Shown: positions 3,016-58,337 of the stretch, one piece after another
Layout of the letters: the number at the start of each line of letters is the position of its first letter
Position numbering within the stretch: the stretch's first letter is position 1
NCBI GenBank assembly: GCA_963714605.1
Contig: CAVQOW010000010.1
Location: 55,293 to 119,292, forward strand
Reading direction: 5' to 3'
DNA from: an uncultured Verrucomicrobiae bacterium
GTDB taxonomy: Bacteria; Verrucomicrobiota; Verrucomicrobiia; Limisphaerales; CAVQOW01
Length of the DNA stretch: 64,000 bases
The notes under the pieces: generated by a model
The model's database searches: none
Seen by the model: the letters and a program-made list of their open reading frames with translations, nothing else
Told to the model about the DNA's origin: nothing
Made by a program: the position numbers and the translations under genes

Positions 3016-4866
<1,851 letters not shown>

Positions 4867-6151: not shown

Positions 6152-7192
6152 CGGTTCCGGCGCATCCTTCACGAATTGACAGAAGGCCTCTCACACGTCC
6201 AAACTCGCACAGATTTTACGCGTGAAGTCCATCTCGTCCACGCCATCGTTGCATCCATCGAAAAAATGACATGAAATCCGCGGTGTCAGAGCGAATGCGG
6301 CTCAACGTTCGCGTTCGCGGCGCCGTGCAGGGAGTTGGTTTTCGTCCGTTCGTTTTCCGGCTCGCCACCGAACTCGACCTCGCGGGCTGGGTCAACAACT
6401 CGCCACAAGGCGTTTTCATCGAAGTCGAAGGATCGCGCGATGCCATTGAAAAATTCCTCCTCCGGCTTGAAGTCGAAAAACCGCCGCGTAGTTTCATTCA
6501 AAGCCTCGAAGCATCCTGGCTCGATGCTGTTGGCCACGTTCATTTTAAAATCCGCGAAAGCGAAACCGGCGGCGACAAGACCGCGCTCGTGCCGCCGGAC
6601 ATCGCGACCTGCGCCGATTGCTTCCGCGAAATCTTCGATCCAACCAACCGTCGCTATCATTACCCGTTCACGAACTGCACCCATTGCGGCCCGCGTTTCA
6701 GCATCATCGAATCGCTGCCTTATGATCGGGAGAACACCTCGATGAAGGCGTTCACAATGTGCCCGCAATGCCGGGCCGAGTACGACGACCCGGGCGACCG
6801 CCGCTTCCACGCCCAGCCCAACGCCTGTCCTGTTTGCGGCCCGCAGATCGAACTTTGGGATGGTGGTCGCGCTTGTAAAATCGCGGAAAGTGGGGATGCG
6901 ACAGGACGTCCGCGTTCTCACGAGCGCGGCTACGATGCTTTATTGGCAGCAGTGGATGCCATCCGTCGCGGCCAAATCGTCGCGGTGAAGGGCTTGGGCG
7001 GTTTCCATTTGATGGTGGACGCGCGCAACGACGAAGCCGTCCGCCGACTCCGGGAGCGAAAGCACCGCGAAGAAAAACCCTTCGCACTCATGTTTCCGTC
7101 GCTGGAGAGCGTAAAAGCTGACTGTGAAGTTTCGCCGCTGGAAGAACGACTGCTGCGCTCGCCCGAAGCACCGATCGTTCTCCTTTGGCAAG

Positions 7193-7220
7193 TCCGAAAT
7201 CCGAAACCTGAAATCCGAAA
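7193..7220. repeat. (TCCGAAA)x4 heptamer tandem array inside hypF, encoding ...VRNPKPEIRN...
   Basis: direct reading: tccgaaa tccgaaa cctgaaa tccgaaa. Confidence 0.8.
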
Positions 7221-7518
7221 TTCCTGTGCTCCCGGCAACCCATGCCTCGGTGTCATGCTCCCTTACACACCGCTTCATCACCTGCTTCTGGCTGAGCTCG
7301 GATTTCCCATTGTCGCCACCAGCGGCAATCTGAGCGATGAGCCGATTTGCATTGACGAGCGTGAAGCGATCGAACGTCTCGGCGGCTTCGCCGACGTTTT
7401 TCTCGTTCACAACCGTCCCATCGTTCGCCATGTGGACGATTCCGTCGTGCGCGTGATGCTCGGTCGCGAACTGGTTTTGCGTCGGGCGAGAGGGTTTGCC
7501 CCGTTGCCAATTACTTTT

Positions 7519-7553
7519 AAATCGAAAATCGAAAATCGAAAATCGAAAATCGT
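7519..7553. repeat. (AAATCGA)x4 + AAATCGT heptamer tandem array inside hypF, encoding ...FKSKIENRKSKI...
   Basis: direct reading of five 7-nt units. Confidence 0.85.
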
Positions 7554-8312
7554 CTTGGCCGTCGGCGCGCATTTGAAAAACGCCGTTGCCCTCTCGGTCG
7601 GCGACCAGGTTTTCATCAGCCAGCACATCGGCGATTTGGAGACAGAACAGGCATTTGCCGCCTTCCGCCGGGTCATTGCGGATTTTGAAAAACTCTACGG
7701 GGCGAAATCGCGAAATAATCGCTGCTGATTTGCACCCGGATTACCTTTCGACGAAATTGCGAGAGTGGCGCGCGAAGGCAAGAGTACGCATCTTGAGGCC
7801 GGAAACCTGCGCTACATAAGTGTCCAGCACCATATTGCACACGTTCTGTCATGCATGGCGGAAAATGAGTTATCGCCGCCAGCGCTCGGTGTGTCGTGGG
7901 ACGGCACGGGCTACGGCTTGGACGGAACGGTTTGGGGCGGAGAATTTTTTCTTGTCACCGACAAAAGCGTCGAGCGCGTTGCACATTTCCGCCCGTTTCG
8001 GTTGCCTGGCGGAGACAAGGCCGTCAAAGAACCGCGCCGCGCGGCGGCAGGATTGCTTTACGAGATGTTTGGTGCGGCAGTGTTTGAACGAAAAGAGTTA
8101 GCGCCCGTCGCGGCATTTTCGCCCGGTGAACTATCCACACTGAAAGCAATGCTCGCGCGTAATCTTAACTCGCCTTTTTGTTGCAGCGTCGGCCGGTTGT
8201 TTGACGCCGTCGCTTCGCTGACAAATTTCCGCCAGCAAATCCGCTTCGAAGGGCAGGCCGCAATGGAACTGGAGTTCGCGCTGGAGGGAATCGAAACTGA
8301 CGAAGCTTATGA

Positions 8313-8389
8313 ATTGCGGATTGCGGATTGCGGATTGCCGGAATCGTCGCTCGACGGAAATCCGAAATCCGAAATCCGAAATCCGCAAT
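8313..8389. repeat. 77-nt palindromic element: (ATTGCGG)x3 ATTGCCG, 17-nt spacer, (AAATCCG)x4, inside hypF
   Basis: inverted heptamer arrays able to fold as a hairpin; the hypF frame switches from 1 to 0 exactly here (77 mod 3 = 2). Confidence 0.8.
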
Positions 8390-8706
8390 TATCTTGGACT
8401 GGTCGCCGATGATGGAAGCGATGCTGGCCGACATGCAAAGCGGCATTTCCGTCGGCAAATTTCCGCCAAGTTTCACAACGCTTTGGTCGGAAGGCATCAT
8501 CGCCGTCGCCAAACGTGCCGGCCAAACGCGGTGGTGCTTTCAGGCGGCTGTTTTCAGAATCGTTATCTTACTGAGCGCGCGGTGCGACGACTGCAGGTGG
8601 AGGGATTCCGTCCCTATTGGCATCAGCGCGTGCCGCCCAACGACGGCGGCATTGCCTTGGGCCAAGTCATTGCCGCGCGGCGCGAGAAGGGGTAGAATGA
8701 CAAGAC

Positions 8707-8965
8707 ATGTGTCTGGCCATTCCAGGAAAAATTGAAAGCATCAGCGGCGATGAGCCGCTGTCGCGCACGGGCAAGATCAATTTCGGCGGCATCCTCAAGG
8801 AAGCCTGTCTCGCCTACGTGCCCGAAGCGAAGGTCGGCGATTATGTCATCGTCCACGTCGGCTTCGCCCTCAGCCGGGTGGACGAGGACGAGGCGCACAA
8901 GGTTTTCGAGTACTTGAAGGAGATGGAGGAACTCGGCGAGCTGGGAGATGGAATCCGGCCCATGA
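8707..8965 (+). CDS. hypC: hydrogenase maturation factor HypC; runs through into hypD in this sequence, probably a 1-nt indel near its 3' end
   Basis: MCLAIPGKI... N-terminus typical of HypC/HupF; an out-of-frame TGA at 8963-8965 forms a canonical ATGA overlap with the hypD start. Confidence 0.6.
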
Positions 8966-10065: not shown

Positions 10066-10079
10066 ATTATTTATGCGGG

Positions 10080-10181
10080 AACATCGAACATTGAACATCG
10101 AACATCGAACATCCAATTTCATTTGGATGGTCGGGGACAAGACATTCGATGTTGGGCGTTGGGCGTTGGATGTTGGATGTT
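10080..10181. repeat. about 100-nt palindromic element between hypD and hypE: (AACATCG)x4 AACATCC, 32-nt spacer, CGATGTT (GGGCGTT)x2 (GGATGTT)x2
   Basis: inverted heptamer arrays read directly; located in the 130-nt hypD-hypE spacer. Confidence 0.8.
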
Positions 10182-18241: not shown

Positions 18242-18646
18242 TTATTTCAGCCAGTTGATTTTGATTTCCTTTTCCAATGCCTTGAATTCCGGGTCGCCGG
18301 TGACGAGTTCGACTTTCTTTTCCTTCGCCAGTGCAGCCGCAAAGGCATCGGCCAGGCTGATTTTGTAGCAGGCTTTGAATTCGGCGGCGAGGTCGGCCAA
18401 CCGGCGGGTTGCCGGATGAAATTCGATGGGCGCGGTTTTCAGTTCATTGGCGATGATGGCCCACGCTGCGTCGCCGTCCTTGCGCCGGATGATGTATTGC
18501 ACTTCGGCGTAGTTGACCTCGGTCATGTGGACGGGCTGGTCGCGCTGGCCCGCGCGTTCGAGGATGAGGGACACGCTCTCTCCGCCCGGTTCATCCCGGA
18601 GCAAAGCCAGCAGCGCGTAACTATCGAGAACCGGTGCTGCGGGCAT
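18242..18646 (-). CDS. vapC: PIN-domain toxin VapC
   Basis: 134 aa; acidic PIN residues (LDSYALLAL..E, LADAF); overlaps the upstream small antitoxin gene. Confidence 0.75.
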   Translation of the reverse strand: MPAAPVLDSYALLALLRDEPGGESVSLILERAGQRDQPVHMTEVNYAEVQYIIRRKDGDAAWAIIANELKTAPIEFHPATRRLADLAAEFKACYKISLADAFAAALAKEKKVELVTGDPEFKALEKEIKINWLK

Positions 18647-18914
18647 ACTTGGCTTCCTCCAGTTGTTTTTCCTCGCGCTTGTGTTCGGCCATCTGCTCGG
18701 CGAAAGGCTTTTCGCCCGGCTTGCGTTTCAGGATGCCGCGCAGCCGCCGGATGCTGGTGGCGGTGACGGGCTTGATGAGAATGCCTTCCGGCGTGCCCTC
18801 AACGTAAGCCCGCGTGCCTTCTTCGATTTCAAATTCTTTTCGCAAACGTCGGGGAATGACCACCTGGCCTTTGACCGAAAAACAAACCGTTTCTACCTTT
18901 AGTGCTACGCTCAT
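18621..18914 (-). CDS. vapB: AbrB/SpoVT-type antitoxin VapB
   Basis: 97 aa; swapped-hairpin-like N-terminus (VKGQVVIPRRLRKEF); 26-nt overlap with vapC. Confidence 0.65.
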   Translation of the reverse strand: MSVALKVETVCFSVKGQVVIPRRLRKEFEIEEGTRAYVEGTPEGILIKPVTATSIRRLRGILKRKPGEKPFAEQMAEHKREEKQLEEAKYARSTGSR

Positions 18915-19081: not shown

Positions 19082-22000
19082 TTGCGCCGGTTAATTTGCA
19101 TTCAACCGATGCCGGACAGAATCGAACATCTGCAACACCTGTTGCGCGAACGCATCGTCATCCTTGACGGCGCGATGGGCACGATGATCCAGCAACGCAA
19201 GCTGGATGAGGCGGCGTTTCGCGGCGCGCGGTTCGCGGACTGGCGCGGCAAAGACCTAAAAGGGTGCAATGACCTCCTCAATCTCACCCAGCCGCAAATC
19301 ATCGAGGACATCCATCGCCAATATCTCGAAGCCGGCGCGGATATCATCGAGACCAACACGTTCAACTCGCAGTCCATCTCGCTTGCGGATTACGGGCTGG
19401 AATCGCTCGCCTACGAGCTGTCGAAAGCCGGCGCGGAATGCGCGCGTCGCGCTGCCGACAAAGTCATGGCCGCGCAACCGATGCGCGTCTGTTTCGTCGC
19501 CGGCGCGATTGGACCTACAACAAAAACCTCTTCCATCTCGACCGATGTCAACAATCCCGCCGCTCGCGGGACGACTTACGACAAACTGGTCACTGTGTAC
19601 GGCGAACAGATCCGCGGTCTGCTTGACGGCGGCGCGGACTTGCTGTTCGTCGAAACCATTTTCGACACACTGAATGCGAAGGCGGCGTTCTTTGCGATCC
19701 TAAAGTTTTCGAGGATCGCGGCGTCGAGCCGTTCTCTTTTTCCGCCGGAGTTGCTCAATCTCAAATCTCAAATCGCATATCGCAAATTCCAGTGCTCGCA
19801 TCTGTCACATTCATCCAAGCCGGAAGCAATCGCGGTGTTACCGGGCAAACCGTCGAAGCGTTTTGGAATTCCATCTCACACGTGCCGCTATTGAGCGTCG
19901 GCATGAATTGCGCACTTGGGCCGAAAGAATTGCGTCCGCTGATCGAGGAGCTTTCCGGCATTGCGCCGATTTACGTCAGCGCATATCCAAACGCCGGACT
20001 GCCGAATCCGCTCTTGCCGACGGGTTTTCCCGAAACACCGGAAACGCTCGCGCCCCAGTTGCGCGAGTGGGCGCAGAACGGCTGGTTGAACATCGTCGGT
20101 GGTTGTTGCGGCACAACGCCGTCGCATATCAAAGCAATCGCCGGCGCCGTAAAAAATTTGTCGCCGCGCAAAGTTCCGGCGGTTGAGCCTTACCTGCGAT
20201 TGAGCGGGCTGGATGCACTAACCGTGCGTCCGGATTCCAATTTCCTCAACATCGGCGAGCGCACGAACGTCGCCGGATCACCGAAGTTCGCCCAGCTCAT
20301 CAAGGCCGGCGATTACGAAGCCGCGCTGACGGTTGCACGGCAGCAGGTCGAGAACGGCGCGCAGGTCATTGATGTCTGCATGGACGAAGGGATGATAGAC
20401 GGTGTCGCGGCGATGACGCGCTTTCTCAACCTCATCGCCTCCGAACCGGACATCTGCAAAGTGCCGGTCATGGTGGATTCCTCGAAATGGGAAGTCATTG
20501 AGGCCGGATTGAAATGTCTTCAAGGCAAAGGCATCGTCAACTCGATAAGCCTGAAGGAAGGCGAGGAAAAGTTTTTGCATTATGCGAAACTCGTCCGTCG
20601 CTACGGTGCTGCGGTCGTCGTGATGGCGTTTGACGAACGCGGCCAGGCCGATTCGTTCCAGCGTCGCACGGAAGTCTGCAAACGCGCTTACGATTTGCTC
20701 GTCGGTAAAGTTGGTATCCCGCCGCAGGACATCATTTTTGATCCGAACGTGCTGACCGTCGGCACGGGCATGGAGGAACACGCGAATTACGCCGTGGATT
20801 TCATCCGCGCGACAAAGTGGATCAAGGAGAATCTACCTCATGCGAAAGTCAGCGGCGGCATCAGTAATGTTTCTTTCTCATTTCGCGGCAACAACGCCGT
20901 GCGCGAGGCGATGCACAGCGCGTTTCTTTTTCACGCCATCAAGGCCGGACTCGACATGGGCATCGTCAACGCCGGGATGCTGGCGGTCTATGAGGAAGTT
21001 CCGAAAGAGTTTTTGGAATTGGTCGAAGACGTTTTGCTGAATCGCAAACCCGACGCCACCGAGCGGCTCATCAAATTTGCCGAATCGGTGAAGCAAAAAG
21101 GTAAAACCAAAGTCGTCGAGGACGAATGGCGCAAGGGCACGGTTGAGGAACGGCTCAGCCACGCGCTCGTAAAAGGAATCGTGGATTTCATTGATGCCGA
21201 TGTGGAAGAGGCGCGTCAGAAATACGCGAAGCCGCTACTCGTCATCGAAGGCCCGCTCATGGCGGGCATGAATGTCGTCGGCGATTTGTTCGGAGCTGGC
21301 AAAATGTTTCTACCGCAGGTCGTCAAAAGCGCCCGCGTGATGAAGAAAGCCGTCGCTTATCTCCAGCCGTTCATGGAAGCAGAAAAGAAAGCCGCAGGCG
21401 GCACGCACAAAAATGCCGGCAAAATCCTTATGGCTACTGTCAAAGGCGACGTGCATGACATCGGCAAGAACATTGTCGGCGTTGTGCTGGCGTGCAACAA
21501 CTACGAGGTGATTGACCTCGGCGTGATGGTGCCGTGCGAAAAAATCCTCGCCGCCGCCCGCGAACACAAGGTCAACATCATCGGCCTCAGCGGACTCATC
21601 ACGCCGTCGCTCGACGAAATGGCGCATGTCGCCCACGAGATGGAACGCCAAGGTCTGAAGCTGCCGTTGCTCATCGGCGGCGCGACGACGAGCAAAGCGC
21701 ACACTGCGGTGAAGATTGCACCCGGTTACAATCAACCGGTGGTCCATGTCATTGATGCGAGCCGAGCCGTGCCGGTGGTTAGCAATTTGATTAGCACCGA
21801 GCAAAAACCGAAGTTCGCCGCGCGAATCCGCGACGAATACGACCGCGTTCGCGCCCAACACGGTGGTCAAACGGCAAAATTGGTTTCGATTGAGGAAGCT
21901 CGCGCCAACGCGCCGAAACTGAAGTTCGACGATTTGCCAAAGCCGGAGTTCACCGGCGCGCGAAAACTTTGTTCCGATATAGGCACAATTTCGCTGGCCG

Positions 22001-22945
22001 ACCTTGTTCCTTTCATTGACTGGTCGCCGTTCTTCCACACTTGGGAACTGCGCGGTGTTTATCCGAAAATTCTCCAGCACGAAAAGCACGGCGAAGAAGC
22101 GCGCAAACTTTTCGCCGACGCCCAGAAGCTGCTCGACAAGATTGTGACCGGGAAACTCCTCAGCGCCTGTGGCGTGTACGGCTTCTTCCCTGCCAATCGC
22201 GTCGGTGACGACGTGGAACTTTACGCGGATGAATTGCGTTCGATAGTTTTGACGACGTTTCACTTCCTCCGGCAGCAAATCGAGAAGGGCGACGGTTCGC
22301 CGAACTGGTGTCTGGCCGATTTTATTGCGCCCCAAAATGCGCGGCATCACGTGCCACGTGTCATGTGTCACGATTATATTGGCGCGTTCGCCGTCACGAG
22401 CGGGCATGGGCTCGCCGAACTTGTCAAAAAGTTCAAGGCCGACCACGACGATTACAACGCCATCATGGCCGAAGCGCTGGCCGACCGGTTGGCGGAGGCA
22501 TTCGCCGAATTCCTGCACAAGCGCGTCCGGGAAGAATGGGGCTTCGGCAAATCCGAAAAGCTGGCGACTGAAGACCTCATTGAAGAAAAGTATCGCGGCA
22601 TCCGCCCGGCGGCGGGTTACCCAGCGTGCCCCGACCACACCGAGAAAGGAACTTTGTGGAAGTTGCTCGACGTGGAGAAAAACACAGGCATCAAGCTTAC
22701 GGAAAGTTTTGCGATGTGGCCTGGCAGTTCATGTGAGCGGACTTTATTTCGCACACCCGAATTCAAAATACTTCGCCGTTGGCAAGCTGGGTCAAGACCA
22801 ACTGCTCGATTACCACCTCCGCAAAGCAATGAACTTGCAGGAAGTCGAGAAATGGCTTGGGCCATACTTGAATTACGATCCGACCAAAGTCGACAGCCCC
22901 GGAAACGCCACGTCCAAGTGCTCGTGTGGCGTGGCTCATCGTTGA
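19082..22945 (+). pseudogene. metH: cobalamin-dependent methionine synthase MetH; frame breaks near 19700 and 22735; carries a 60-nt in-frame heptamer-repeat insertion
   Basis: Hcy S-methyltransferase, pterin-binding, B12-binding (DxHxxG ... GGATTSKAH) and AdoMet-activation domains all recognisable; C-terminus continues in ORF 22325..22945. Confidence 0.9.
19757..19790. repeat. heptamer array AATCTCA AATCTCA AATCGCA TATCGCA AATTCC inside metH
   Basis: direct reading; part of a 60-nt segment encoding [20 protein letters not shown] between the conserved GVE and PVLASV segments. Confidence 0.8.
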
Positions 22946-23057
22946 CGGAGTAGTCTTCTATATTCCAGACGGAATTCATTACAGGCTGTAGGCGATAAAG
23001 CGCTCGACAGGGAATGAGTTTTTGCTTAAAAGAGACATCGTCGCAGAAGGGAGAACT

Positions 23058-23306
23058 ATGACGACGCAAGTTCAAGCAGTCAAAATGGTGCCGGTGGACG
23101 CGAAATTCATCGAGGCCGTGGGTTACGTGGAGTCCACCCGTCAGTTGTACATCAAATTTCTGAACTCGCACACGCTCTGCATGAACAACGTGCCGGGCTT
23201 TCGTTATCAGGGACTGATGGCCGCGCCACGCATTGACGCCTATTACAACGCCTACATCAAAGAGCGATTTCTGACGAAGCAAGTGGAACTGCCGTCGCTG
23301 ATTTGA
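23058..23306 (+). CDS. KTSC-domain protein
   Basis: about 80 aa, MTTQVQAVKMVPVDAKFIEAVGY... resembles the small KTSC domain family. Confidence 0.4.
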   Translation: MTTQVQAVKMVPVDAKFIEAVGYVESTRQLYIKFLNSHTLCMNNVPGFRYQGLMAAPRIDAYYNAYIKERFLTKQVELPSLI

Positions 23307-27950: not shown

Positions 27951-28871
27951 TTACTTTTTGCCTCTCGTAAAACCCGGCCGTGGACGGATCGGTGGCGGAA
28001 TGGGAATGCGCTTGGGCGGCAACGTTGGTGTGGACGGAGACGCCGTCGGCGGCGTGACCGAAGACTGTGGCCAGTTTTTCTGGGCAAGTTCCACGACTTG
28101 ACTGGCAACATTGGCGGCAGGTGATTCCGAAACCTTTGTCCCGATTGTTTCAATTCCTTTTGCCAGCCAATCCTCGGCCTTCGTCACCGTCTCGCCGATT
28201 TTCGTTTCGGGAAATTTCATCTCGCCGATCTGAAAATCGGTAAGCGACTTGAGTTTGTCCACGGTTTCACCCGCGGTTCTGACGACTTCAGTCCAACGGT
28301 CGCCCACTGTCGCCAACGTATCGTACCCGTTCACAATCCAATCGAGTTTGCCCGTCTGGATATCCACGACCAAACCGTGCACCGGCACTTTCGGACCGAT
28401 GAGCGGACTGTGCCGGACAATGTCGCACGCCTTGATGACGTTCTGCCGCTCGCTGCCGAACATGCCGAAGTAATCATTGATGTTCTCCGGCAACACGCGC
28501 CGTTCCACGCCCAGCGCCTTCAGCTTGTCGAGCAACTGCGTCGTCGTCGTCTTGCACACCTGACAATCCGTGTGGCCGATGATGGCGATTTCCTTGCCGC
28601 CCTTGACCGCGCACGCCAGCGCCAGCGACCGCATCGTGCTGCTGAGCGGCGCGGTGATGATGTTGCCCGCATTGCGCAACCAGATGAAACTCTCTTCCGG
28701 AACTCCGAGCACGCCCGGCATGAGCCGATTCAGTCGCGGGTCAACGCACGTCAGCGCCACGACCGGCAATTCGCTCTCGAACTCCGCCACATGGACTCCG
28801 GCGTTTTGATCGCCCGCAACCGCGCGACTGTTCGCTTCGATAATGGCTTCAAAAAGGCGCATGGCTGGCAT
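27951..28871 (-). CDS. beta-class carbonic anhydrase with Pro-rich C-terminal extension
   Basis: CVDPR and GHTDCQ zinc-ligand motifs. Confidence 0.8.
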   Translation of the reverse strand: MPAMRLFEAIIEANSRAVAGDQNAGVHVAEFESELPVVALTCVDPRLNRLMPGVLGVPEESFIWLRNAGNIITAPLSSTMRSLALACAVKGGKEIAIIGHTDCQVCKTTTTQLLDKLKALGVERRVLPENINDYFGMFGSERQNVIKACDIVRHSPLIGPKVPVHGLVVDIQTGKLDWIVNGYDTLATVGDRWTEVVRTAGETVDKLKSLTDFQIGEMKFPETKIGETVTKAEDWLAKGIETIGTKVSESPAANVASQVVELAQKNWPQSSVTPPTASPSTPTLPPKRIPIPPPIRPRPGFTRGKK

Positions 28872-28915
28872 GGAATTATCCCTCTTGCCTCAATTGGTCA
28901 AACAATGAATCAAAA
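28798..28915. repeat. native copy of about 118-nt repeat (first 25 codons of the carbonic anhydrase gene plus about 45 nt upstream)
   Basis: matches 30082..30199 at about 92% identity and 29523..29578 partially. Confidence 0.8.
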
Positions 28916-28990
28916 GGCCGCCTCTGCCGGTCAGTTTCGAGGTCGCCCTTTTTGTTTGCAGTTGCGGCCCAGGCAAGTTCAACTCTGGTC

Positions 28991-29272
28991 ATGCTGACTT
29001 TTGAATGGAACGCGAACAAGGCCGGATCAATTCTGGCCAAGCACGGTGTCAGCTTTGAAGAAGCGGCGACGGTTTTTGGCGATCCCGCTTCAATAACAAT
29101 TCCAGACCCGGCGCACTCGCAAATGGAAACGCGATTCGTCATCTTGGGCCGTTCGCATCAAGGAAGATTGTTGGTTGTCATCCACACCGAACGCGGCGAT
29201 AATATCCGCATCATCAGCGCGCGGCACGCGAGCCGGCGCGAAAGAAAAAGCTATGAAGAAACCATCGGCTAA
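28991..29272 (+). CDS. brnT: BrnT-like toxin (DUF497)
   Basis: MLTFEWNANKAGSILAKHGVSFEEAATVF... typical of the BrnT family. Confidence 0.65.
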   Translation: MLTFEWNANKAGSILAKHGVSFEEAATVFGDPASITIPDPAHSQMETRFVILGRSHQGRLLVVIHTERGDNIRIISARHASRRERKSYEETIG

Positions 29273-29474
29273 ACCGGCGGTTAAAGATATGCGGGCGGAA
29301 TATGATTTTTCGCGCGGCGTGCGCGGCAAACATTTCCGACGCTACCATCGCGGCGCGAACGTGGTGGTCTTGGGGCCGGACGTGGCCAAGGTTTTTTCCA
29401 ATGCCGAAACCGTGAACGATTCTCTCCGCGCGCTGGCGGGCATCATCCGCCGACAAAAAGCGGTAGCGAGATAA
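29253..29474 (+). CDS. brnA: BrnA-like antitoxin
   Basis: small ORF overlapping the brnT 3' end; ...EYDFSRGVRGKHF... C-terminus. Confidence 0.5.
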   Translation: MKKPSAKPAVKDMRAEYDFSRGVRGKHFRRYHRGANVVVLGPDVAKVFSNAETVNDSLRALAGIIRRQKAVAR

Positions 29475-29522
29475 TTTCCTTCTCCGCGCTGGGGAGAAGG
29501 TGGCCGGAGGCGGGATGAGGTG

Positions 29523-29578
29523 GATCGCCGGCAACCGCGCGACTGTTCGCTTCAATAATGGCTTCAAAAAGGCGCATG
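29523..29578. repeat. partial (56-nt) copy of the carbonic-anhydrase 5' repeat
   Basis: encodes ...MRLFEAIIEANSRAVAGD... out of context. Confidence 0.8.
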
Positions 29579-29584
29579 CCGGCT

Positions 29585-29803
29585 TTACTTCATTTCCCGT
29601 AGGAAATCCTCAATCTCTACTCCGCCATCACGCAATGCACCTTTCAGCGTGAAGCGGTCAACTTCGTCGTGAAAAGGAAACACGATCAACCTTCCATCGG
29701 GATGCTTCATCTTCACGTGACTGCCTTTGCGATGAATCTCCTGAAAACCCAGGCGCTGCAAAGCGGTCAACACCTGTCTGCCGGACAGGAGCGGCAATTT
29801 CAT
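29585..29803 (-). CDS. hicA: HicA mRNA-interferase toxin
   Basis: 72 aa; ...GFQEIHRKGSHVKMKHPDGRLIVFPFH... Confidence 0.75.
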   Translation of the reverse strand: MKLPLLSGRQVLTALQRLGFQEIHRKGSHVKMKHPDGRLIVFPFHDEVDRFTLKGALRDGGVEIEDFLREMK

Positions 29804-29997
29804 ACCGTCAATTCGACCACTTCGCGTTTGCCTGCCAGTTCTTCGGGCGATGGTTCAAGATAGAGATCAATCGCTTCCCGGATATTTATCAAAGCCTCCT
29901 CGCGTGTCTTGCCCTGTGACCAGCAACTCTTCAGCGACGGACAATGCGCCACGAAGTAGCCGTCCTCACCGGGTTCAATTATCACTTTCAAGTTCAT
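29800..29997 (-). CDS. hicB: HicB antitoxin (UPF0150)
   Basis: MNLKVIIEPGEDGYFVAHCPSLKSCWSQGKTREEALINIREAI...; ATGA overlap with hicA. Confidence 0.7.
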   Translation of the reverse strand: MNLKVIIEPGEDGYFVAHCPSLKSCWSQGKTREEALINIREAIDLYLEPSPEELAGKREVVELTV

Positions 29998-30081
29998 GCC
30001 ATTTGCCTTTCGTTCACGGGTGCAATGTAAACCGGCCAAAATCGAAAAGCCAGTTCATCGGCAAACTCCGTCGGATGCAAA

Positions 30082-30199
30082 CCGGCGTTTTGATCGCCGG
30101 CAACCGCGCGACTGTTCGCTTCAATGATGGCTTCAAAGAGGCGCATGGCTGACATGGAATTATCCCTCTTGCCTCAATTGGTCAAACACTGAATCAAAA
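30082..30199. repeat. third copy of the carbonic-anhydrase 5' repeat, pseudo-start MSAMRLFEAIIEANSRAVAGDQNAG...
   Basis: about 92% identical to 28798..28915. Confidence 0.8.
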
Positions 30200-30311
30200 T
30201 GCCGCTTGCGCGCAGTTCAACTCCGCAAATGCGAAGTTCGTGACCGACTACAAGAATGCCCGCATTATTGTGGATTCAACCGGCCGTAGCGCGAGAACTT
30301 ACTTTGCTCTT

Positions 30312-30683: not shown

Positions 30684-30688
30684 GTTGA

Positions 30689-30742
30689 ATTTACGATTTA
30701 CGATTTGCGATTTGCAATTGCGATTGCGATTTTCGATTCACG
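30689..30742. repeat. array of about 8 ATTTACG/ATTTGCG/ATTGCG units, abutting the stop of the four-helix-bundle gene
   Basis: direct reading. Confidence 0.8.
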
Positions 30743-31097
30743 CGCGGTTGGAAGTGCGGGCGGTTTTTGCCGATGAGACGACGATGGCCAGGATTTCATC
30801 GGATTCTTTCATCAAATCTCGAAGCAGCGATTCCTTGATATAATTGTTTTCCACCAGCAGTTCCATCCAGAACAATGATTCATCGCATTCTTCTTCAACA
30901 ATGCGAAGCTTGTTGATGAAGTCCGCGCCGGATTTCGCCCGACAGACAGCGCGGTAATTCGCACCCACAGAAGTCCCGCTACGAAGAAGCTGTTTTCCGA
31001 GTGTTTGCGCAACCCAATCACCCGGCAACGCAGAGCAGAGCTTCACGACACGATTGGCGTAAGTCTTCGTCCGATCTTTCATTTCCTCGCGCGTCAT
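30738..31097 (-). CDS. four-helix-bundle protein (23S rRNA intervening-sequence protein / Avd-like family)
   Basis: ...LGKQLLRSGTSVGANYRAVCRAKSGADFINKLRIVEEECDESLFWMELL... matches the family core. Confidence 0.8.
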   Translation of the reverse strand: MTREEMKDRTKTYANRVVKLCSALPGDWVAQTLGKQLLRSGTSVGANYRAVCRAKSGADFINKLRIVEEECDESLFWMELLVENNYIKESLLRDLMKESDEILAIVVSSAKTARTSNRA

Positions 31098-31100
31098 AGG

Positions 31101-31238
31101 ATTTACGATTTACGCGCGCCTTTTGATCTCGTCATCTGTGACATGAGCGTTGCGCATCTGTTTTCGTTTGAGTTCACAACAACCCAGCAGGCATGGATTT
31201 TCGACAGACTCGTAAATCGTATATCGTAAATCGTCAAT
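31101..31238. repeat. inverted heptamer arrays (ATTTACG x2 ... CGTAAAT CGTATAT CGTAAAT CGTCAAT) flanking a 96-nt core; between the four-helix-bundle gene start and the flotillin stop
   Basis: direct reading. Confidence 0.8.
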
Positions 31239-32762
31239 TTATTCGTCTTTTTTGCCCATCGCCTTTTTAAGTGCGGGGACTTGTTCCAGCAATTTCTCAA
31301 ACTTTACGCCGGTCAAACTTTCCAACACCGGCGGCAACTGGCTGATGATGGTCGTCACGTCGCCGGTGAGCTTGCTCGCGCCGCCGCCCGGCCCGTTGCC
31401 GGAATTGATGATGACCATCTTCTCAGTCTTGCTGAGCGGCTCGCTGATCTTGCCAGCGACTTCCGGCAGCACGCGCACAATCATTTCGATGACGGCGGCC
31501 TCGTTGTATTGCTTGAAGCTTTCGGCTTTGTTCTTCATCGCCTCGGCAGTCGCCTTGCCTTGCGCTTCGATGACGGCGGCTTCGGCCAGACCACGCGCTT
31601 TGTTCGCTTCGGCTTCGGCGATACCGGTGGCCTTGGCGACATCCGCGTTGGCAAAACCTTTGGCCTTGGCGGCGGATGCAGCGCCAGCGGCTTCGGTTTC
31701 GAGTTGGAACTTCGTGGCGTTGGCGAGCGTCTCGACTTTGTAGCGTTCGGCGTCGGCGGGTTTCTGGACGTTGGCTTCCAGTTCGCGCTGCTTTCGTTGA
31801 ATTTCCTGCTGTTGCAGCTCGATTTGCTTCTGCTTCTCGATGATTTGCACCTGCACTTCTTCCGCTTTCACCAACTGGCCGGTCTTGAATTTCTGCAAAT
31901 CATACGCGAGGTCGGCCTCGGCTTTCTTCTGATTCACCGCGGCCTGATATTGCGCGACGTTGGATTGATAATCGCGTTGCGCCTCGGCGACCTTGGTGTC
32001 GGCGGCAAACTTCGCTTCCTGTCCAGCCTGCGTGGCTTGTGACGACTTGATCATCGCGTCGCGGTCGGCTTCGGCCTGCGCGATCTGCGCGTCGCGTTTG
32101 ACCTGCGCGATACGCGGTTTGCCGAGCGCTTCGAGGTAACCCTGGCTGTCGCGAATGTCCTTGATCGTGAAGCTGACGATGCCGAGACCCATGTTGGCCA
32201 TGTCGCCCGCGGCGACTTCCTGAACCTTGGAAGCGAAGGCATCGCGGTTCTGATAAATGTCCTCGACGGTCATCGTGCCGAGGATGGCGCGAAGATGGCC
32301 TTCAAGCGTTTGCATCGCGACCCCTTTGATTTCATCGGTCGTTTTGCTGAGGAATTGCTCGGCGGCGGTGGCGATTGAAACGTCATCTCCTTTGACCTTG
32401 ATTTGCGCCACGCCATCCACGCGCACCGGCACGCCCTTGCTGGTATAGACATCCTGCTCCTGCTGCACGTCAATGGTGAGCAGTTCGAGCGACAGAATGT
32501 CCACCTTTTCAAAGACCGGCCACACGAAGACGCCGCCGCCTTTGACAATGCGGAAGCCGACGTCGCGCGCCGCGCCGTCCGGATCCACGATGCGGTGTTT
32601 GCGCCCGGAAATGACGAGCACCTGGTTCGGGCCGACCTTGGTGTAGCGGCTCGCCCAAATACCGGCGAAGATGAAGAAGACCAGCATGAGCGCGCCCACG
32701 CCCATGATGACGGTCAGCCATGGAATTTCGCCTGCAACGGCAAGAATAGGAGTCAGGTTCAT
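31239..32762 (-). CDS. flotillin-like SPFH/band-7 protein
   Basis: N-terminal TM, SPFH domain, long EA-rich coiled-coil (FloT/YuaG-like). Confidence 0.85.
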   Translation of the reverse strand: MNLTPILAVAGEIPWLTVIMGVGALMLVFFIFAGIWASRYTKVGPNQVLVISGRKHRIVDPDGAARDVGFRIVKGGGVFVWPVFEKVDILSLELLTIDVQQEQDVYTSKGVPVRVDGVAQIKVKGDDVSIATAAEQFLSKTTDEIKGVAMQTLEGHLRAILGTMTVEDIYQNRDAFASKVQEVAAGDMANMGLGIVSFTIKDIRDSQGYLEALGKPRIAQVKRDAQIAQAEADRDAMIKSSQATQAGQEAKFAADTKVAEAQRDYQSNVAQYQAAVNQKKAEADLAYDLQKFKTGQLVKAEEVQVQIIEKQKQIELQQQEIQRKQRELEANVQKPADAERYKVETLANATKFQLETEAAGAASAAKAKGFANADVAKATGIAEAEANKARGLAEAAVIEAQGKATAEAMKNKAESFKQYNEAAVIEMIVRVLPEVAGKISEPLSKTEKMVIINSGNGPGGGASKLTGDVTTIISQLPPVLESLTGVKFEKLLEQVPALKKAMGKKDE

Positions 32763-42855: not shown

Positions 42856-44246
42856 ATGACCGTTTGGAACATCATTTACATCGTTGTCGCTGTTATTGTC
42901 CTTTTCGGGGCGGCGGTTTTCGTCCACGAATTCGGCCATTACTGGATGGCGTTGCGACGCGGGCTGAAGGTGGAGAAATTCGCCATCGGCTTCGGCCCGA
43001 AAATTTTTGGCTGGACGAAGAACGGCATCGAGTATGCCTGGCGGTTGATTCCCGCCGGCGGGTTCGTGGCGCTGCCGCAGATGGTCACGGCGGAGGCGCT
43101 CGAAGGGAAATCCGATTCCGCCGAACCGCTGCCGCCGATTTCACCGCTCTCGAAGATTCTCGTGTCGTTCGCCGGACCGTTCATGAACGTGGTGTTCGCG
43201 TATGTCATCGCGACGCTGCTGTATTTCATCGGCCTGCCGGTGCCGGTCAGCCCGCCGATCGTCGGGCATGTGGACCCGGCGTCGCCCGAAGGCCAGATGG
43301 GCATCCGCGAGGGAGACCGGGTGGTAATGCTGGACCACAAGCCCATCAAGTCGTGGGAGGAGATCATGGAATACACCATGATGGCCCGCACGAATGTGAT
43401 CCCGGTGGTGATGGTGCGGGGGAACGTCACTAACACTTACAACCTGACGACCAAGGTGAGCGAGGTCATCGGCTTGAAGATGTTGAACCTCGATCCGCGC
43501 GAACATCCGGTGGTCGGCGAGGTGGAGAACGGCATGCCGGCGGCGGCGGCGGGCATCCAGCCCGGCGACAAAATCCTGTCGGTGGGCGGGATTCCGGTCC
43601 CAGCAAGGACCGGATGATCGAGCTGATCTCCAAGGCGGCAGGCAAGCCGTGCGAGATTGTGTTTGTCCGCCAGAATGAGCAGAAGCGCGTGACGGTCACG
43701 CCGCGCTACGATCCCGTCAACAAACGCGCCCGCATTGGGGTGATTTTCGGCACGGGCGTTTACGAGGTGCAGCATCCGACGCCGTGGGCGCAGGTCAACG
43801 ATGTCGTTAACAAGATGGTCAGCACATTCGCGGCACTGCTGCATTCCAAACAAACCGGCGTGGGGGCGAAGGATTTGTCCGGGCCGGTGGGCATCTTCGC
43901 CATGCTGGCCGCGGAGGTGAACAGCGACTACCGGCTCGCGTTGAGCTTCCTAGTGCTGCTCAACATCAACCTGGCGTTCATCAACCTGCTGCCGGTGCCG
44001 GTGCTGGACGGCGGCCACATCACCATGGCCGTCCTGGAGCGCATTCGCGGCAGGGCGTTGAGCGCAAAGTTCGTGGAATACCTCACCACCGTTTTCGCCA
44101 CATTGCTCATCTCGTTCATCCTTTACGTGACGTTCTTCGACATCAAGCGCATCTCCCTGTTCCGCTATATGTTCAATTCGAAGCCGCAAATCCAGCAGCA
44201 GGAAACCGGCAACCCCGCCGTCGCGCCCGCTCCCAGCAAGCCATGA
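42856..44246 (+). pseudogene. rseP: RIP zinc metalloprotease RseP; frame break near 43610
   Basis: HEFGH motif, PDZ domain, second motif LPVPVLDGGH in the downstream ORF. Confidence 0.8.
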
Positions 44247-46018
44247 GATACTGCGAATCGCCCTACTTTTACAAACGCCGAAAAACGCGCGAGATCGTCG
44301 TTGGCGATCCCAACAACGGCGGCTTTGTCATGGGCGGCAACCATCCTGTCGTCATGCAATCCATGCTCACGTGCGACACGATGGACACGGCGGAGTGCGT
44401 GAAGCAAACGCTCGACCTTGTGGCCGTCGGCTGCCAGCTCGTACGCATCACCGCCCCGACGGTAAAGGACGCGGCGAATTTGCAGAATATCGTCGCCGAA
44501 TTGCGGAAGCGTGGATGTAATGTGCCGATTGTCGCCGACATCCATTTCAAGCCTGACGCCGCGATGGAAGCCGTGAAATGGGTTGAGGTCGTGCGCGTGA
44601 ATCCCGGCAATTATGCCGATTCGAAAAAATTCGCAACCAAGGAATACACCGACGAGCAATACGCCGCCGAGTTGAAGCGCATTGAGGAAAAATTTGCGCC
44701 GCTCGTGCTGGAAGCGAAACGGTTGAAGCGTTGCCTTCGCATCGGCACGAACCACGGCTCGCTTAGCGACCGCATCATGAACCGGTATGGCGACACGCCG
44801 CTGGGCATGGTCGAGAGCGCGCTGGAGTTTGCCCGCATCTGCCGCAAGCACGACTTTCACAACTTCAAATTCTCGATGAAGGCGAGCAACCCGAAGGTGA
44901 TGATCGAGTGCTATCGGTTGCTCGTCGCGCGGCTGGAACAGGAAGGGCCGGACTGGAATTATCCGATTCACCTCGGCGTCACCGAGGCGGGCGAAGGCGA
45001 GGATGGCCGAATCAAATCCGCCATCGGCATCGGTTCGCTACTTTGCGACGGTTTGGGCGATACGATTCGCGTTTCGCTTACGGAAGATTCGCCCCGTGAG
45101 ATTGAAGTGTGCCGCGACTTGCTGACGCAAATTCCGAGCCTTGCCAATCTGCAGCCTTCGACCTTCAATCTTCAACCTTCGTTTGACCCTTTTCACTTCG
45201 AGCGACGTGAGACGCCGGAAATCGAACTCGCTCTCGGCGTGAAATGCGGCGGCGAGCAACTCATCCGCGTCGTCGTCACGCACGCGACGTGGGACAAAGT
45301 CGCACCGAAGATTCGTCCCAAGGACGACGTGAAGCCGGAGGCGGTCTATGAAGACCTGAACGTCGCGGAAATTGATCCGATGCAGAACTTCGACATCAAC
45401 TGTGACACGCAACTCGTTACCGTGAAAGACGGCGTCCCGCATTGCGGGATTACCGCATTTCGCTTGCTCGCGGCAAAGTTGAAACACCTGGGACGGAAAA
45501 ACCCGATTCTGCTGAAAGATTGTCTAAGCTTCGATCCGACACCGCTCGAACCGAAAATCGCCTTGCTCCGCGCGTCGGTGGTCATTGGCTCGCTACTGGC
45601 GGATGGAATCGGCGACGCGATTTTGATTCGCGGAGAAAGCGGGGCGGGCCAATCGCTGCGGCTGGCTTACAACATTTTGCAGGCGGCGGGTTGCCGTTCG
45701 TTCAAGACCGATTACGTCGCGTGCCCGTCGTGCGGGCGAACGCTGTTCAACTTGCAGACTGTCACGGCGCGCATCAAGACGCGAACGGAGCATCTCAAAG
45801 GCGTGAAGATCGCGATCATGGGCTGCATCGTGAACGGCCCCGGCGAAATGGCCGATGCGGACTTCGGTTACGTGGGCGGCGCGCCCGGCAAGATCAATCT
45901 CTACGTCGGCAAGACGCCCATCAAATTCAATATTCCCGAAGCCGAAGCCGTGGAACGCCTCGTGGATTTGATTCGCGAACACGGAAAATGGGTTGAGCCG
46001 GAAATGGTGAATGCCTAA
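44243..46018 (+). CDS. ispG: 4-hydroxy-3-methylbut-2-enyl diphosphate synthase IspG, long form with internal insert
   Basis: 591 aa; TIM-barrel N-terminal part and CPSCGRT...GC...NG 4Fe-4S C-terminal part. Confidence 0.9.
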   Translation: MRYCESPYFYKRRKTREIVVGDPNNGGFVMGGNHPVVMQSMLTCDTMDTAECVKQTLDLVAVGCQLVRITAPTVKDAANLQNIVAELRKRGCNVPIVADIHFKPDAAMEAVKWVEVVRVNPGNYADSKKFATKEYTDEQYAAELKRIEEKFAPLVLEAKRLKRCLRIGTNHGSLSDRIMNRYGDTPLGMVESALEFARICRKHDFHNFKFSMKASNPKVMIECYRLLVARLEQEGPDWNYPIHLGVTEAGEGEDGRIKSAIGIGSLLCDGLGDTIRVSLTEDSPREIEVCRDLLTQIPSLANLQPSTFNLQPSFDPFHFERRETPEIELALGVKCGGEQLIRVVVTHATWDKVAPKIRPKDDVKPEAVYEDLNVAEIDPMQNFDINCDTQLVTVKDGVPHCGITAFRLLAAKLKHLGRKNPILLKDCLSFDPTPLEPKIALLRASVVIGSLLADGIGDAILIRGESGAGQSLRLAYNILQAAGCRSFKTDYVACPSCGRTLFNLQTVTARIKTRTEHLKGVKIAIMGCIVNGPGEMADADFGYVGGAPGKINLYVGKTPIKFNIPEAEAVERLVDLIREHGKWVEPEMVNA

Positions 46019-55725: not shown

Positions 55726-56172
55726 TTATTTTTTCAACCGATAGAACCAGTTGCCCGTGGGTGGAGTGATGGTGACGCTCTTGGTCGTGCCGTCATCGTT
55801 GATTGTGCCGCCGTAAGCTGACCAGCCGTTGGTGTTGGACAAATCGGTGTTTTGTTGCAGCACAAAATCGGCGGAAGGTGACGGCCATGAGACGATGACG
55901 TCCTCGCCGCTGTGCGTGACGGTGAGCAACGGTGCGCCGGGCGTTTGCACGGCGGCGATGAGACTCCAGAAACCGCCGTCCAAAGAATAACTGCCACCGC
56001 TCATGGTTGCACCCGCGTCCGGCTGGCCGATAGTGCCGCTGACGGAATACACGCCACCAGTGCTTGTACAGCCACCACCGTCAATCGTGGACCAGTCAAT
56101 CGAATAGTTCTGCGCTGTGGCGCGAAGGCAGAAGGCAGAAGTAAGAATGAAGAAACAAAACCTCGCCAAGGG
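55726..56172 (-). CDS. small secreted protein ending in a conserved about 70-aa C-terminal domain shared with the giant beta-helix protein
   Basis: probable TTG start with signal peptide; C-terminus ...VSWPSPSADFVLQQNTDLSNTNGWS...TITPPTGNWFYRLKK. Confidence 0.4.
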   Translation of the reverse strand, partial: PLARFCFFILTSAFCLRATAQNYSIDWSTIDGGGCTSTGGVYSVSGTIGQPDAGATMSGGSYSLDGGFWSLIAAVQTPGAPLLTVTHSGEDVIVSWPSPSADFVLQQNTDLSNTNGWSAYGGTINDDGTTKSVTITPPTGNWFYRLKK

Positions 56173-56235
56173 CGAAAAATTCGTGCGGCAACATTTCCGG
56201 TTGTCAGCCCGCCCGTCAGCGGGCAGCTTGCGGAC

Positions 56236-56418
56236 ATGAGAAACCGCTACACGGCCGTGGTCCAGCGGGGTGGCAAATGGTTCATCGCCTTCCGCCCGGA
56301 AGTGCCGGAAGCCAACGGACAGGGCAAGACCCGAGAGGAATGTCTCGAAAGCCTGTCCACCGCAATTGAACTGGTTCTGGACTACCGGCGCGAGCATCGC
56401 CGCGCCGCTTTCCTTTGA
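56236..56418 (+). CDS. HicB-like antitoxin (60 aa), preceded by a degenerate 30-aa HicA-like ORF (56147..56239)
   Basis: MRNRYTAVVQRGGKWFIAFRPEVPEANGQGKTREECLESLSTAIELVL; upstream MKKQNLAKGEKFVRQHFRLS... Confidence 0.4.
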   Translation: MRNRYTAVVQRGGKWFIAFRPEVPEANGQGKTREECLESLSTAIELVLDYRREHRRAAFL

Positions 56419-56449
56419 CTTGCCGCTGCTTCTTCCGTATTCTACTTCC

Positions 56450-56653
56450 ATGATCGCCGTTGAAGAACGCCGCTTAAAAGGTCTGCTCAAAAGCGCTGTT
56501 GCGGAAGTCTTGGAGGAGCACCGCGACGTGCTGCGCGACGCCGTCCGCGAAAGTCTCGAGGATGTGGCCCTGATCCGCGCCATCCAACTCGGCGAAAAAA
56601 CTCCCCTCATCAGTCGCCGGAAAATCTTCCAAAGGCTCGAACGCGCGGCGTGA
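56450..56653 (+). CDS. putative antitoxin partner of the downstream RelE/ParE toxin
   Basis: 67 aa; 4-nt overlap with the toxin gene. Confidence 0.45.
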   Translation: MIAVEERRLKGLLKSAVAEVLEEHRDVLRDAVRESLEDVALIRAIQLGEKTPLISRRKIFQRLERAA

Positions 56654-56916
56654 ACACGCGCTTTCGGGAATCGTTTGACCGGGATCTGTCCGCCCTGACC
56701 GATGCCAGATTGCTGCGGCGAATCAAGCAGGTGCTTGAACAGGTGGAGGCCGCCCGCACTTTCCAGCAGATTCCCAACCTCAAGCGTCTTGACGCCAGGG
56801 GTAAATACTACCGCATCCGCGTGGGCGATTATCGAGTGGGCTTTGTCTTCGAGCATGGCGCGGTCACGTTCGTCCGCTGCCTCGACCGCAAGGAAATTTA
56901 CCGCTACTTTCCCTGA
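56650..56916 (+). CDS. RelE/ParE-family toxin
   Basis: ...GKYYRIRVGDYRVGFVFEHGAVTFVRCLDRKEIY. Confidence 0.7.
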   Translation: MNTRFRESFDRDLSALTDARLLRRIKQVLEQVEAARTFQQIPNLKRLDARGKYYRIRVGDYRVGFVFEHGAVTFVRCLDRKEIYRYFP

Positions 56917-57204
56917 ACTCCGGCGCGGTTGAAGCGGTGCCCCGCCATGCGGAGATTGGAAAACACCTTTCCCGCAAAATCTGTCGCCAACTTTCGGTGC
57001 CCGTACCTGCGGGAGCTTGACGGCGCTTTCAGAAAGCGACAAGTCTCCGCATTCCAAGACGCTGTGCACCTTCCGTCCGCCGTCTGCCAGCTTTGAGGTT
57101 CGCATTTTCATTTTGCAACTCCGCTGTTTTCTCTCACGACTGCCACAAGGCAGCCGCAAAATTGTAAAATTCATTTTTGCTTTTCATTGTGGTCAGTGCT
57201 GAAG

Positions 57205-58302
57205 CTAAAAAGCAAAGTTGGCCCACGGATTGGTGATGCTGAATGCAGGCCCGGGCGTACTAATTATCTGACCGTATGCTGTGTCACCGGCACCTGTAAC
57301 ATCAAAATCAAATCCACCGTTGCCCTTCGCGGTGTTGCGCACGATGAAGTTTCGGTGAGCGGTATTATCCACCAGAATTCCACGAAATAAATTGGTCACA
57401 ACATGGTTGCCGTCAATGCGGTTATTGTCACCTCGGGCATGGATGCCGGCGAAGGTGGCGTTGTTGGTTACGCCGTTGCCAGTGCAGGTGTTCCCAAGAA
57501 CCTGGCAGTTATTAAACACGACAATGCCATCGCCGCCGTTGTTGTTCGCCGTGCAGTCTTTTACGGTGCAGGCGTCATCTGTGAAAATGCCTGCGTAGCC
57601 ATTCCAACCATTGGCATCAACCAAACAGTCTGTGACGACGGACCTTTTTCCCACCATTATTCCGTTCTGATAGTTGGTCTGCGCTACGCAATTCTTAATC
57701 ATCACGCCGTTCCCGTTCGCCGCCAGAATGCCGTTGCCATTGTTGGTCCTCACAACGCATTCAACGACAAGACAGCCATCCTGCACTGCAATTCCGTTAT
57801 GATTTCTCTCAGCCACGCAATTTTTCACCGCGCTACCGGGGCCGATGTTTAATTCAGAGACGGCGTTGTCGGAAGCTCGCAACTGCTCGAATTGGCCGTT
57901 GCTCCAATAGACTGATTGAATGCCGTTTCGCCAGGAGCGTAAGGTGCCGTTGCGAACGCAGAGATTTCTCCCGCCGTTGGCATCCGCAGAAATGCCATCC
58001 AGCGCACCGGAGATGCCGGTCATGACGAAACCATTCAGATCCAGCGTCACATCGCTCGCGAAGATCGTAATTCCGTTTGTGCCGGCGACACCGATGAGAT
58101 TGGCGGTCAAATAATACGAGCCGGAGTTGGTGATATTGATCGGCAATGATGAAATGGGTGTGCGCGGTTGAATTTGGTCAAGCGTCTTCATAGTCGGCCC
58201 GGGCGGTCCCACTGGCGTGAGACTGCCTTGAGCCATTACCTGCATGCTGTTGCTGGCCAGCGCAATTACGCAGACCATTTGGATAAGGTGCTTCCTGTTC
58301 AT
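57205..58302 (-). CDS. secreted parallel beta-helix repeat protein (paralog A)
   Basis: signal peptide; N/G/T-rich beta-helix repeats. Confidence 0.6.
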   Translation of the reverse strand: MNRKHLIQMVCVIALASNSMQVMAQGSLTPVGPPGPTMKTLDQIQPRTPISSLPINITNSGSYYLTANLIGVAGTNGITIFASDVTLDLNGFVMTGISGALDGISADANGGRNLCVRNGTLRSWRNGIQSVYWSNGQFEQLRASDNAVSELNIGPGSAVKNCVAERNHNGIAVQDGCLVVECVVRTNNGNGILAANGNGVMIKNCVAQTNYQNGIMVGKRSVVTDCLVDANGWNGYAGIFTDDACTVKDCTANNNGGDGIVVFNNCQVLGNTCTGNGVTNNATFAGIHARGDNNRIDGNHVVTNLFRGILVDNTAHRNFIVRNTAKGNGGFDFDVTGAGDTAYGQIISTPGPAFSITNPWANFAF

Positions 58303-58337
58303 AAGGTGTCTTTCTTAAAATTAGACGTCTTAACTTT

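Follow-up and report, generated by a model that had tools for sequence, protein, structure and literature searches.

Heptanucleotides repeated head to tail are a known type of bacterial simple sequence repeat (SSR), and polymerase slippage has been held responsible for their over-representation (Mrazek et al. 2007, as cited in PMC4692102 and PMC4679880). Described cases include the short tandemly repeated repetitive (STRR) sequences of the cyanobacterium Calothrix, GGGAATC in Xanthomonas and TAACTGA in Beggiatoaceae. Translated 7-nt repeats occur in NeuO of the Escherichia coli K1 phage CUS-3, where perfect, hypermutable (AAGACTC)n arrays of 3-53 units form an ON/OFF switch in a contingency gene, ON only at unit numbers divisible by three (PMC13001214). 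[quoted passage not shown] Lastly, the intervening sequence (IVS) of the Coxiella burnetii 23S rRNA combines a PF05635 open reading frame (ORF) with terminal inverted repeats (PMC4990558). Here, we explored a heptamer array lying inside metH, the gene for cobalamin-dependent methionine synthase (MetH), in a 64,000-nt stretch of contig CAVQOW010000010.1 of an uncultured Verrucomicrobiae bacterium (hereafter the window, numbered from its first letter). The array type is already known; what is new is its in-frame, translated variant in a permissive MetH loop, and not a new system. Our findings make it probable that the segment carrying the array is a hypervariable loop of the homocysteine (Hcy)-binding (beta-alpha)8 barrel of MetH, with an inherited, translated heptanucleotide array in one verrucomicrobial clade.

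The gene, metH, spans 19109-22945 on the forward strand when read across two single-base frame breaks. In phmmer searches against PDB, the N-terminal half of its product matched human MetH (E=8.8e-230, residues 7-659) and the C-terminal half E. coli MetH 1K7Y (E=2e-106); this full-length similarity to solved MetH covers the five modules S-methyl_trans, Pterin_bind, B12-binding_2 with B12-binding, and Met_synt_B12, and the proteins of its relatives carry the precomputed Pfam set. The translation contains GMNCALGP and GGCCGTTP, which, going by E. coli MetH, we take to hold the zinc-ligand cysteines of the Hcy domain, and GDVHDIGKN, presumably the DxHxxG B12 motif. The original prediction had placed 20 extra residues after FEDRGVE. 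These are indeed present in the downstream frame, as codons 19729-19788 on the forward strand (site 1), at a point where the phmmer alignment leaves a gap of ~20 residues in human MetH (4CCZ/9SSP). The segment is likewise absent from Nitrospira-type MetH, and a short form without the insert is found in 47 of the 120 best database homologues, so that, measured against the MetH family at large, it is an insertion, as had been proposed. Its 3' half also holds the predicted heptamer array, located by Tandem Repeats Finder (TRF) at 19757-19787 (+; period 7, 4.4 copies, 87% matches), with the units AATCTCA AATCTCA AATCGCA TATCGCA AAT, translated as 10 residues; heptanucleotide SSRs are recognized from at least three such head-to-tail units. 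The divisibility of the insert by three had been taken as a sign of frame-preserving selection, a reading not supported here, as any functional orthologue shows a multiple of three. With a TRF score of 41, the single array is not significant alone, given that dinucleotide shuffles yield on average 1.33 period-7 arrays per 64 kb; what lifts the signal well beyond chance is the presence of 13 period-7 arrays in the window, together with the retention of this array at the same position in relatives.

Verrucomicrobiota proteins from metagenomes, at 80-87% identity, are the closest homologues, and all of them have extra residues at site 1, from +14 (the commonest) to +55. The first ~8-10 residues of the segment (P-F/L-S/P-F/Y-S/G-A...) are homologous to the loop extension of nearly all verrucomicrobial relatives, and near-identical peptides directly precede (I)PV(L/M)ASVTF in several relatives (SQISNFKSKI, SQISNLKFQI, SQISDFKFQI, FQISNFKFQI and SQLSNFKFQI). 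At the DNA level, a heptamer array occupies this same metH position in related lineages from metagenomes, at least six in number (L001, L081, L082, L083, L084 and L167), and therefore looks old and inherited. Consequently, the discrete 60-nt insertion implied for this genome gives way to an extension and an array shared with verrucomicrobial relatives, neither private nor recent; the 20-residue segment was not found in unrelated lineages and is confined to one phylum-level neighbourhood. Five lineages, the window (indel corrected), L001, L082, L083 and L167, share the same 186-nt segment, in which the repeat units differ (AAATCTC/AAATCGC, AAATYTC, AAATTTC, CAATCGG). Such differences between related genomes at one locus, units at constant length at site 1 and steps of length at a second metH site, are also typical of bacterial heptamer SSRs. 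Array DNA identity among five orthologues reaches 83%, against 55% at third codon positions of the flanks and 67% over the remainder of the loop. In short-read assemblies (P0005, P0008 and P0012) uninterrupted ORFs run through the array, which must thus be translated. Overall, the site-1 array looks inherited and seems to evolve in concert at constant length.

Regarding the protein, the prediction that the insert would map to a surface loop of the Hcy barrel agrees with an AlphaFold model of the Hcy domain of a relative, P0077 (mean predicted local distance difference test score, pLDDT, 83.9). There, residues 205-228, equivalent to the segment, form a low-confidence loop (pLDDT ~52-72) between helix 187-204 and strand 229-234. 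With this low-pLDDT loop and the intact ORFs of relatives, metH site 1 has the properties of an in-frame insertion at a structurally permissive enzyme site. In TIM barrels, helix-to-strand loops lie on the face opposite the active site; by this general topology, the segment would sit on the non-catalytic face of the MetH barrel. The same loop harbors other repeats in relatives. In L084, a 76-nt palindromic element (L084:639-714) with 12-bp perfect termini, CGGAGGGGCGAG...CTCGCCCCTCCG, adjoins the heptamer array, and further in-frame palindromic elements are found at L085:10634-10709, L086:4791-4871, L009:6628-6685 and L003:1009-1063; terminal inverted repeats or a palindromic fold, the mark of such elements, are seen in those of L084, L086, L009 and L003. 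The L009 element has further copies at L009:9061-9118, L003:3269-3325 and L081:437-511, and is thus a dispersed repeat. Loop elements differ among relatives and resemble repetitive extragenic palindromic (REP) sequences or MITEs. Along with an inverted array pair within hypF of the window, they extend the likeness to RPEs. In contrast, the metH array of the window is a solo tandem array, with neither terminal inverted repeats nor a palindromic fold: a search for an inverted partner within reach gave none, the only other matches being in the arm region of a cassette described below, and RNA folding of 19690-19810 gave no structure (z = -0.28).

A second in-frame metH array, of CACGTGY type with 3.7 units, was located by TRF at 22347-22372 (+), within an insert of seven residues (+21 nt) that corresponds to a 7-residue gap in the alignment with the S-adenosylmethionine (AdoMet)-binding domain of E. 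coli 1K7Y (site 2). In 41 loci spanning many phyla, CLADF(I/V)AP and DY(I/L)GAF are separated by a baseline distance of 69 nt. At +21 nt are the window (CACGTGY x3.7), L003 (AACATTC x4.7), L009 (AACATCC x5.3) and L018, and at +42 nt L085 (GAGTCGG x3). Steps of 21 nt, three heptamers or seven codons, hold only at this site, where they share the divisible-by-three arithmetic of NeuO. Yet NeuO arrays are long, near-perfect and prone to slippage, whereas those of metH have about four imperfect units (4.4 at site 1), at a fixed length and in a housekeeping enzyme. Coordinates of the site-2 hot spot in relatives are L003:3649-3738, L009:9442-9531, L085:13314-13424 and L081:7227-7357.

The metH array belongs to a genome-wide family. 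Period-7 arrays number 13 in the 64 kb sampled, against a mean of 1.33 and a maximum of 5 in 30 dinucleotide shuffles, and the next commonest period in the window, 9, has 6 arrays. As in described bacterial heptamer SSRs, the arrays are head to tail and numerous, period 7 is specifically enriched, and some arrays form inverted pairs. Described cases are, however, overwhelmingly intergenic, whereas 7 of the 13 window arrays, four in hypF, two in metH and one in ispG, are located within housekeeping genes and translated; a further difference is that the metH array keeps the same position and a constant length across lineages, and matches in part a cassette arm. On their coding strand, the arrays within genes contain at most one stop triplet (0-1), and the translated peptides QVRNPKPEIRNS, KSKIENRKSKI (hypF) and NLQPSTFNLQPS (ispG) all fall at variable loop positions. 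These patterns suggest a possible mechanism. Arrays would be maintained by replication slippage, by conversion between heptamer arrays, or by both. Because 7 is coprime with three, consecutive units make use of all three reading frames; in an essential gene, only units free of TAA, TAG and TGA on the coding strand would be expected to persist, and the frame would be kept only by net changes of three units (21 nt, 7 codons). The resulting peptide would be a tolerated, disordered linker on the non-catalytic barrel face, presumably with no catalytic role.

A putative donor of part of the metH array lies elsewhere in the window. At 30688-31239 on the reverse strand, a cassette consists of an ORF (30738-31097, -) encoding a four-helix-bundle protein of the PF05635 / 23S_rRNA_IVP family (Pfam E=1.8e-16), inverted heptamer arrays of 26 nt as arms (30688-30713 and 31214-31239; 88% complementary), and a short extra array (31100-31114); TRF places the starts of the three arrays around the gene at 30689, 31100 and 31210. 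It is this cassette, and not the metH array, that resembles the Coxiella IVS, with which it shares a PF05635 ORF of ~120 codons, terminal inverted repeats of ~28 nt and a length of ~430-550 nt; it differs in lying between protein-coding genes instead of in rRNA, and in having arms of four heptamer units (PMC4990558). We compared it with 80 metagenome loci (L087-L166) encoding close homologues (66-90% identity). A (CGTAAAT)~4 array starts at the stop codon in 72 of these loci and an inverted (ATTTACG)~4 array lies 30-77 nt upstream of the start codon in 62, with both present in 56. Cassettes occur between protein-coding genes, in genomic surroundings of at least five different kinds, a frequent position being immediately upstream of dxr. 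Gene-less inverted array pairs also exist, one of them inside hypF. The arms are conserved and do not covary beyond conservation (complementarity of 20.3/24 within loci vs 19.9/24 between loci), so no proven RNA stem is claimed; folding the whole cassette pairs the arms, with no overall significance (z = -1.26), and an Rfam scan of the whole window at gathering thresholds gave no matches. Within the searchable library, our literature searches returned nothing specific on heptamer repeats in Verrucomicrobia/Verrucomicrobiota or on repeats flanking PF05635 genes. In one relative, inverted AAAGGCT-type arrays (L086:2806-2837 and 3885-3915) surround a gene pair that resembles a toxin-antitoxin system (Gp49/HTH_3); the cargo of array-bounded cassettes may thus not be limited to PF05635 genes.

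The 3' half of the metH array, AAATCGCATATCGCAAAT, equals the exact core of the inverted arms of this cassette. The core, AAATCGYATATCGYAAAT, is matched exactly over 18 nt at 19770-19787 (+) and, in the window, elsewhere only at 31214-31231 (0.03 expected with up to two mismatches); as in cassette arms, it stands in metH within a four-unit array of ~28 nt. Of the 80 cassette loci, 43 contain it, with 57 exact matches altogether, and the 88 metH loci contain none; across these loci the motif occurs in cassette arms alone. The canonical arm unit, CGTAAAT, carries TAA, and the second Y of the core is C in the metH frame, since T would create an in-frame TAA. As relatives' arrays at site 1 are without the arm core, the arm-like half is secondary and lineage-specific; in the window lineage, cassette-arm sequence probably replaced the last two units or gave rise to them, C standing where a T would make an in-frame TAA. 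Conversion of half of the metH array from a cassette arm is plausible.

Does the whole array then derive from such an element? It is conceivable, and we put it forward tentatively, that the array represents a solo arm, or the footprint, of a member of a mobile family of IVS-like PF05635 cassettes with inverted 28-nt heptamer-array arms, copied or inserted into the metH loop and surviving there as an in-frame, stop-free sequence. This overlaps with our preferred explanation and differs from it on origin, element-derived instead of grown in place by slippage. The exact 18-nt match, the high frequency of both arrays around PF05635 genes, the diversity of cassette contexts and the gene-less pairs all speak for it, as do the presence of at least two copies of AAATC in 7 of the 13 window arrays and a solo arm-like array in an intergenic region of the relative L082 (7156-7186). 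Against it, arrays of relatives at site 1 consist of AAATYTC or CAATCGG units, metH has neither an inverted partner nor a PF05635 gene between arms, unlike 30688-31239, and a tblastn search of all metH-related loci with the PF05635 protein found no such gene near metH in relatives; nor was a transposase or target-site duplication identified, and arm pairing shows no covariation. A wider version, in our view still a minority possibility, would see the heptamer arrays of this and related Verrucomicrobiota not as ordinary microsatellites but as the termini of undescribed IVS-like cassettes, together with their scattered remnants, solo or paired; such cassettes would have arms of four inverted heptamers around a PF05635 gene or, in one relative, a toxin-antitoxin pair. 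The arrays would spread across the genome, also into surface loops of MetH, HypF and IspG, and convert one another, persisting in enzymes only when stop-free and in 21-nt steps. Alternatively, the array could be a functional DNA or RNA element under nucleotide selection, such as a translational pause signal or the binding array of a heptamer-reading protein, perhaps a cold-shock-type protein or the PF05635 protein itself. Array DNA identity is close to that of the catalytic-barrel flanks (82%) and far above that of flank third positions, while the encoded residues change, and in Beggiatoaceae post-transcriptional regulators have been proposed to bind at heptamer direct repeats (PMC4679880). 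We nonetheless consider this explanation unlikely: units differ between lineages (AAATTTC vs CAATCGG) at constant length, neither an RNA structure over the array nor an Rfam family in the window was found, and in other relatives the site is taken by unrelated palindromic elements or by a +14-residue loop that contains no repeat.

The two remaining alternatives turn on the frame breaks of metH. In the first break (19700-19704, +; cct-aaa-gtt), comparison of frames shows that a single base is lacking within an AAA run or beside it; one added A restores FFAILKVFEDRG / ..AILKVFEDRG.., in line with the ..AIQKIF.. of relatives in the alignment. The original prediction had a frame break ~40 nt upstream of the insert: an upstream break exists, at a distance of ~25 nt from the insert and ~55 nt from the array. 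The second break (22730-22733, +) is one extra base, ..WPGSS / VSGLYFAHP.., as deduced from three-frame translation and the 1K7Y alignment. Both are most likely single-base indels of long-read assembly, unrelated to the repeat, since rpoD (3016-4866), rseP (42856-44246) and hypF (6271-8735) are split as well, and the closest long-read relatives, ENA assemblies with Flye-style contig names, have metH, ftsH, holA and mnmE in pieces too. For these same reasons, a metH pseudogene was rejected as the meaning of the breaks. A NeuO-type phase-variation switch, in which gain or loss of one 7-nt unit would turn metH off or on, has a known precedent in a coding heptanucleotide repeat, and the window copy is out of frame. 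It is nevertheless highly improbable, for the array is short and imperfect, the nearby break is a 1-nt indel 55 nt upstream and not a 7-nt change, five lineages share one fixed length, 186 nt, and metH is a housekeeping gene in a window where other essential genes are split. Two frame breaks in a noisy assembly could also evoke a recent private insertion in a decaying metH, or an artefact. We give this the least credence: arrays stand at the same position in independent assemblies, short-read ones included, with intact frames, and the protein, leaving aside the two 1-nt indels, shares 85-87% identity with relatives and has its zinc and B12 motifs in place.

Our preferred explanation, a hypervariable loop with an inherited, translated array, has its own difficulties. 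Slippage and conversion are processes proposed from sequence comparison. A rule of 21-nt multiples, considered for site 1, was rejected, as loop lengths across homologues are not quantised, and here the 20 additional residues amount to 60 and not 63 nt. The high conservation of array DNA could reflect selection at the nucleotide level instead of neutral tolerance, and the arm-core match is only three substitutions away from an AAATCTC array, so that convergence could account for it. Additionally, the loop was modelled on the relative P0077 and not on the window protein, and the non-catalytic position follows from general barrel topology.

The other window arrays illustrate the variety of settings in which heptamers occur. 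In hypF, TRF located an in-frame AAATCCG-type array at 7193-7221 (+), at a variable, gapped position relative to HypF 3VTH, and a perfect in-frame array of AAATCGA x4.9 at 7519-7552 (+), which adds four residues in the alignment to 3VTH. Two further arrays, starting at 8313 and 8357, form the inverted pair at 8312-8390 (+) in the hypF coding region, with 25-nt arms that are 92% complementary and 29 nt apart, as in a palindromic element; in the match to the HypF_C_2 profile, the pair occupies the gap that separates positions 142 and 162. The hypF frame changes twice within ~80 nt, around and just after this pair, probably through assembly errors in the repeat. At ~6860-6920 hypF also has an insert of ~19 residues (..KIAESGDATGRPRSHERGYD..) relative to 3VTH, with a short palindrome, CCACGAGCGTGG (by back-reading); the insert may be another translated repeat. 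The ispG array, of CCTTCAA type, lies in frame at 45155-45180 (+; TRF) in a gene with a GcpE Pfam match. Between hypCD and hypE, TRF and a pair scan identified an inverted pair at 10079-10181, GAACATC x5 and GATGTTG-type x4.9, with starts at 10079 and 10148 and a 35-nt spacer; related AACATYC units occur inside metH of L003 and L009. The thirteenth array (56124-56141; 2.6 copies), inside an ORF at 55726-57174 (-), is marginal and may be due to chance.

Other features of the window deserve mention. Immediately upstream of metH is a pair of genes for a PIN-domain toxin and a MazE/AbrB-type antitoxin (18242-18914, -), and downstream, as in relatives, a KTSC-domain gene (23022-23306). Near the cassette, a repeat-bearing region (27951-30205, -) contains a 303-residue gene (27951-28862, -) that starts with MRLFEAIIEANSRAVAGD; upstream of it, between this gene and the cassette, sit two truncated copies of its first 44-50 codons with the leader (starts 29577 and 30146). 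In L096, L114 and L119, a cassette lies directly upstream of a gene starting MRLFEA. Direct repeats of 182 nt (55727-55908 / 59431-59612) and 213 nt (58092-58304 / 59207-59419), with 74-85% identity, link the ends of neighbouring large reverse-strand genes and are probably paralogous domains.

For MetH itself the result is modest: two of its loops, in the Hcy barrel and in the AdoMet domain, tolerate 7-55 extra residues. For annotators, SQISNLKFQI and similar peptides of verrucomicrobial proteins are to be read as translated repeats and not as functional motifs, and the frame breaks of this assembly most likely represent errors, not pseudogenes. The arrays also provide a clean natural example of the in-gene filtering of a repeat unit whose length is coprime with three, with no stop triplet in any frame and changes of 21 nt. 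The part worth pursuing is the possible tie between arrays and PF05635 cassettes. The heptamer arrays of cyanobacteria, Xanthomonas and Beggiatoaceae, long known, may be tied to IVS-like cassettes of this kind; if the arrays were indeed cassette remnants, one mechanism would account for STRR-type repeats, for multi-copy PF05635 genes and for RPE-like in-frame insertions.

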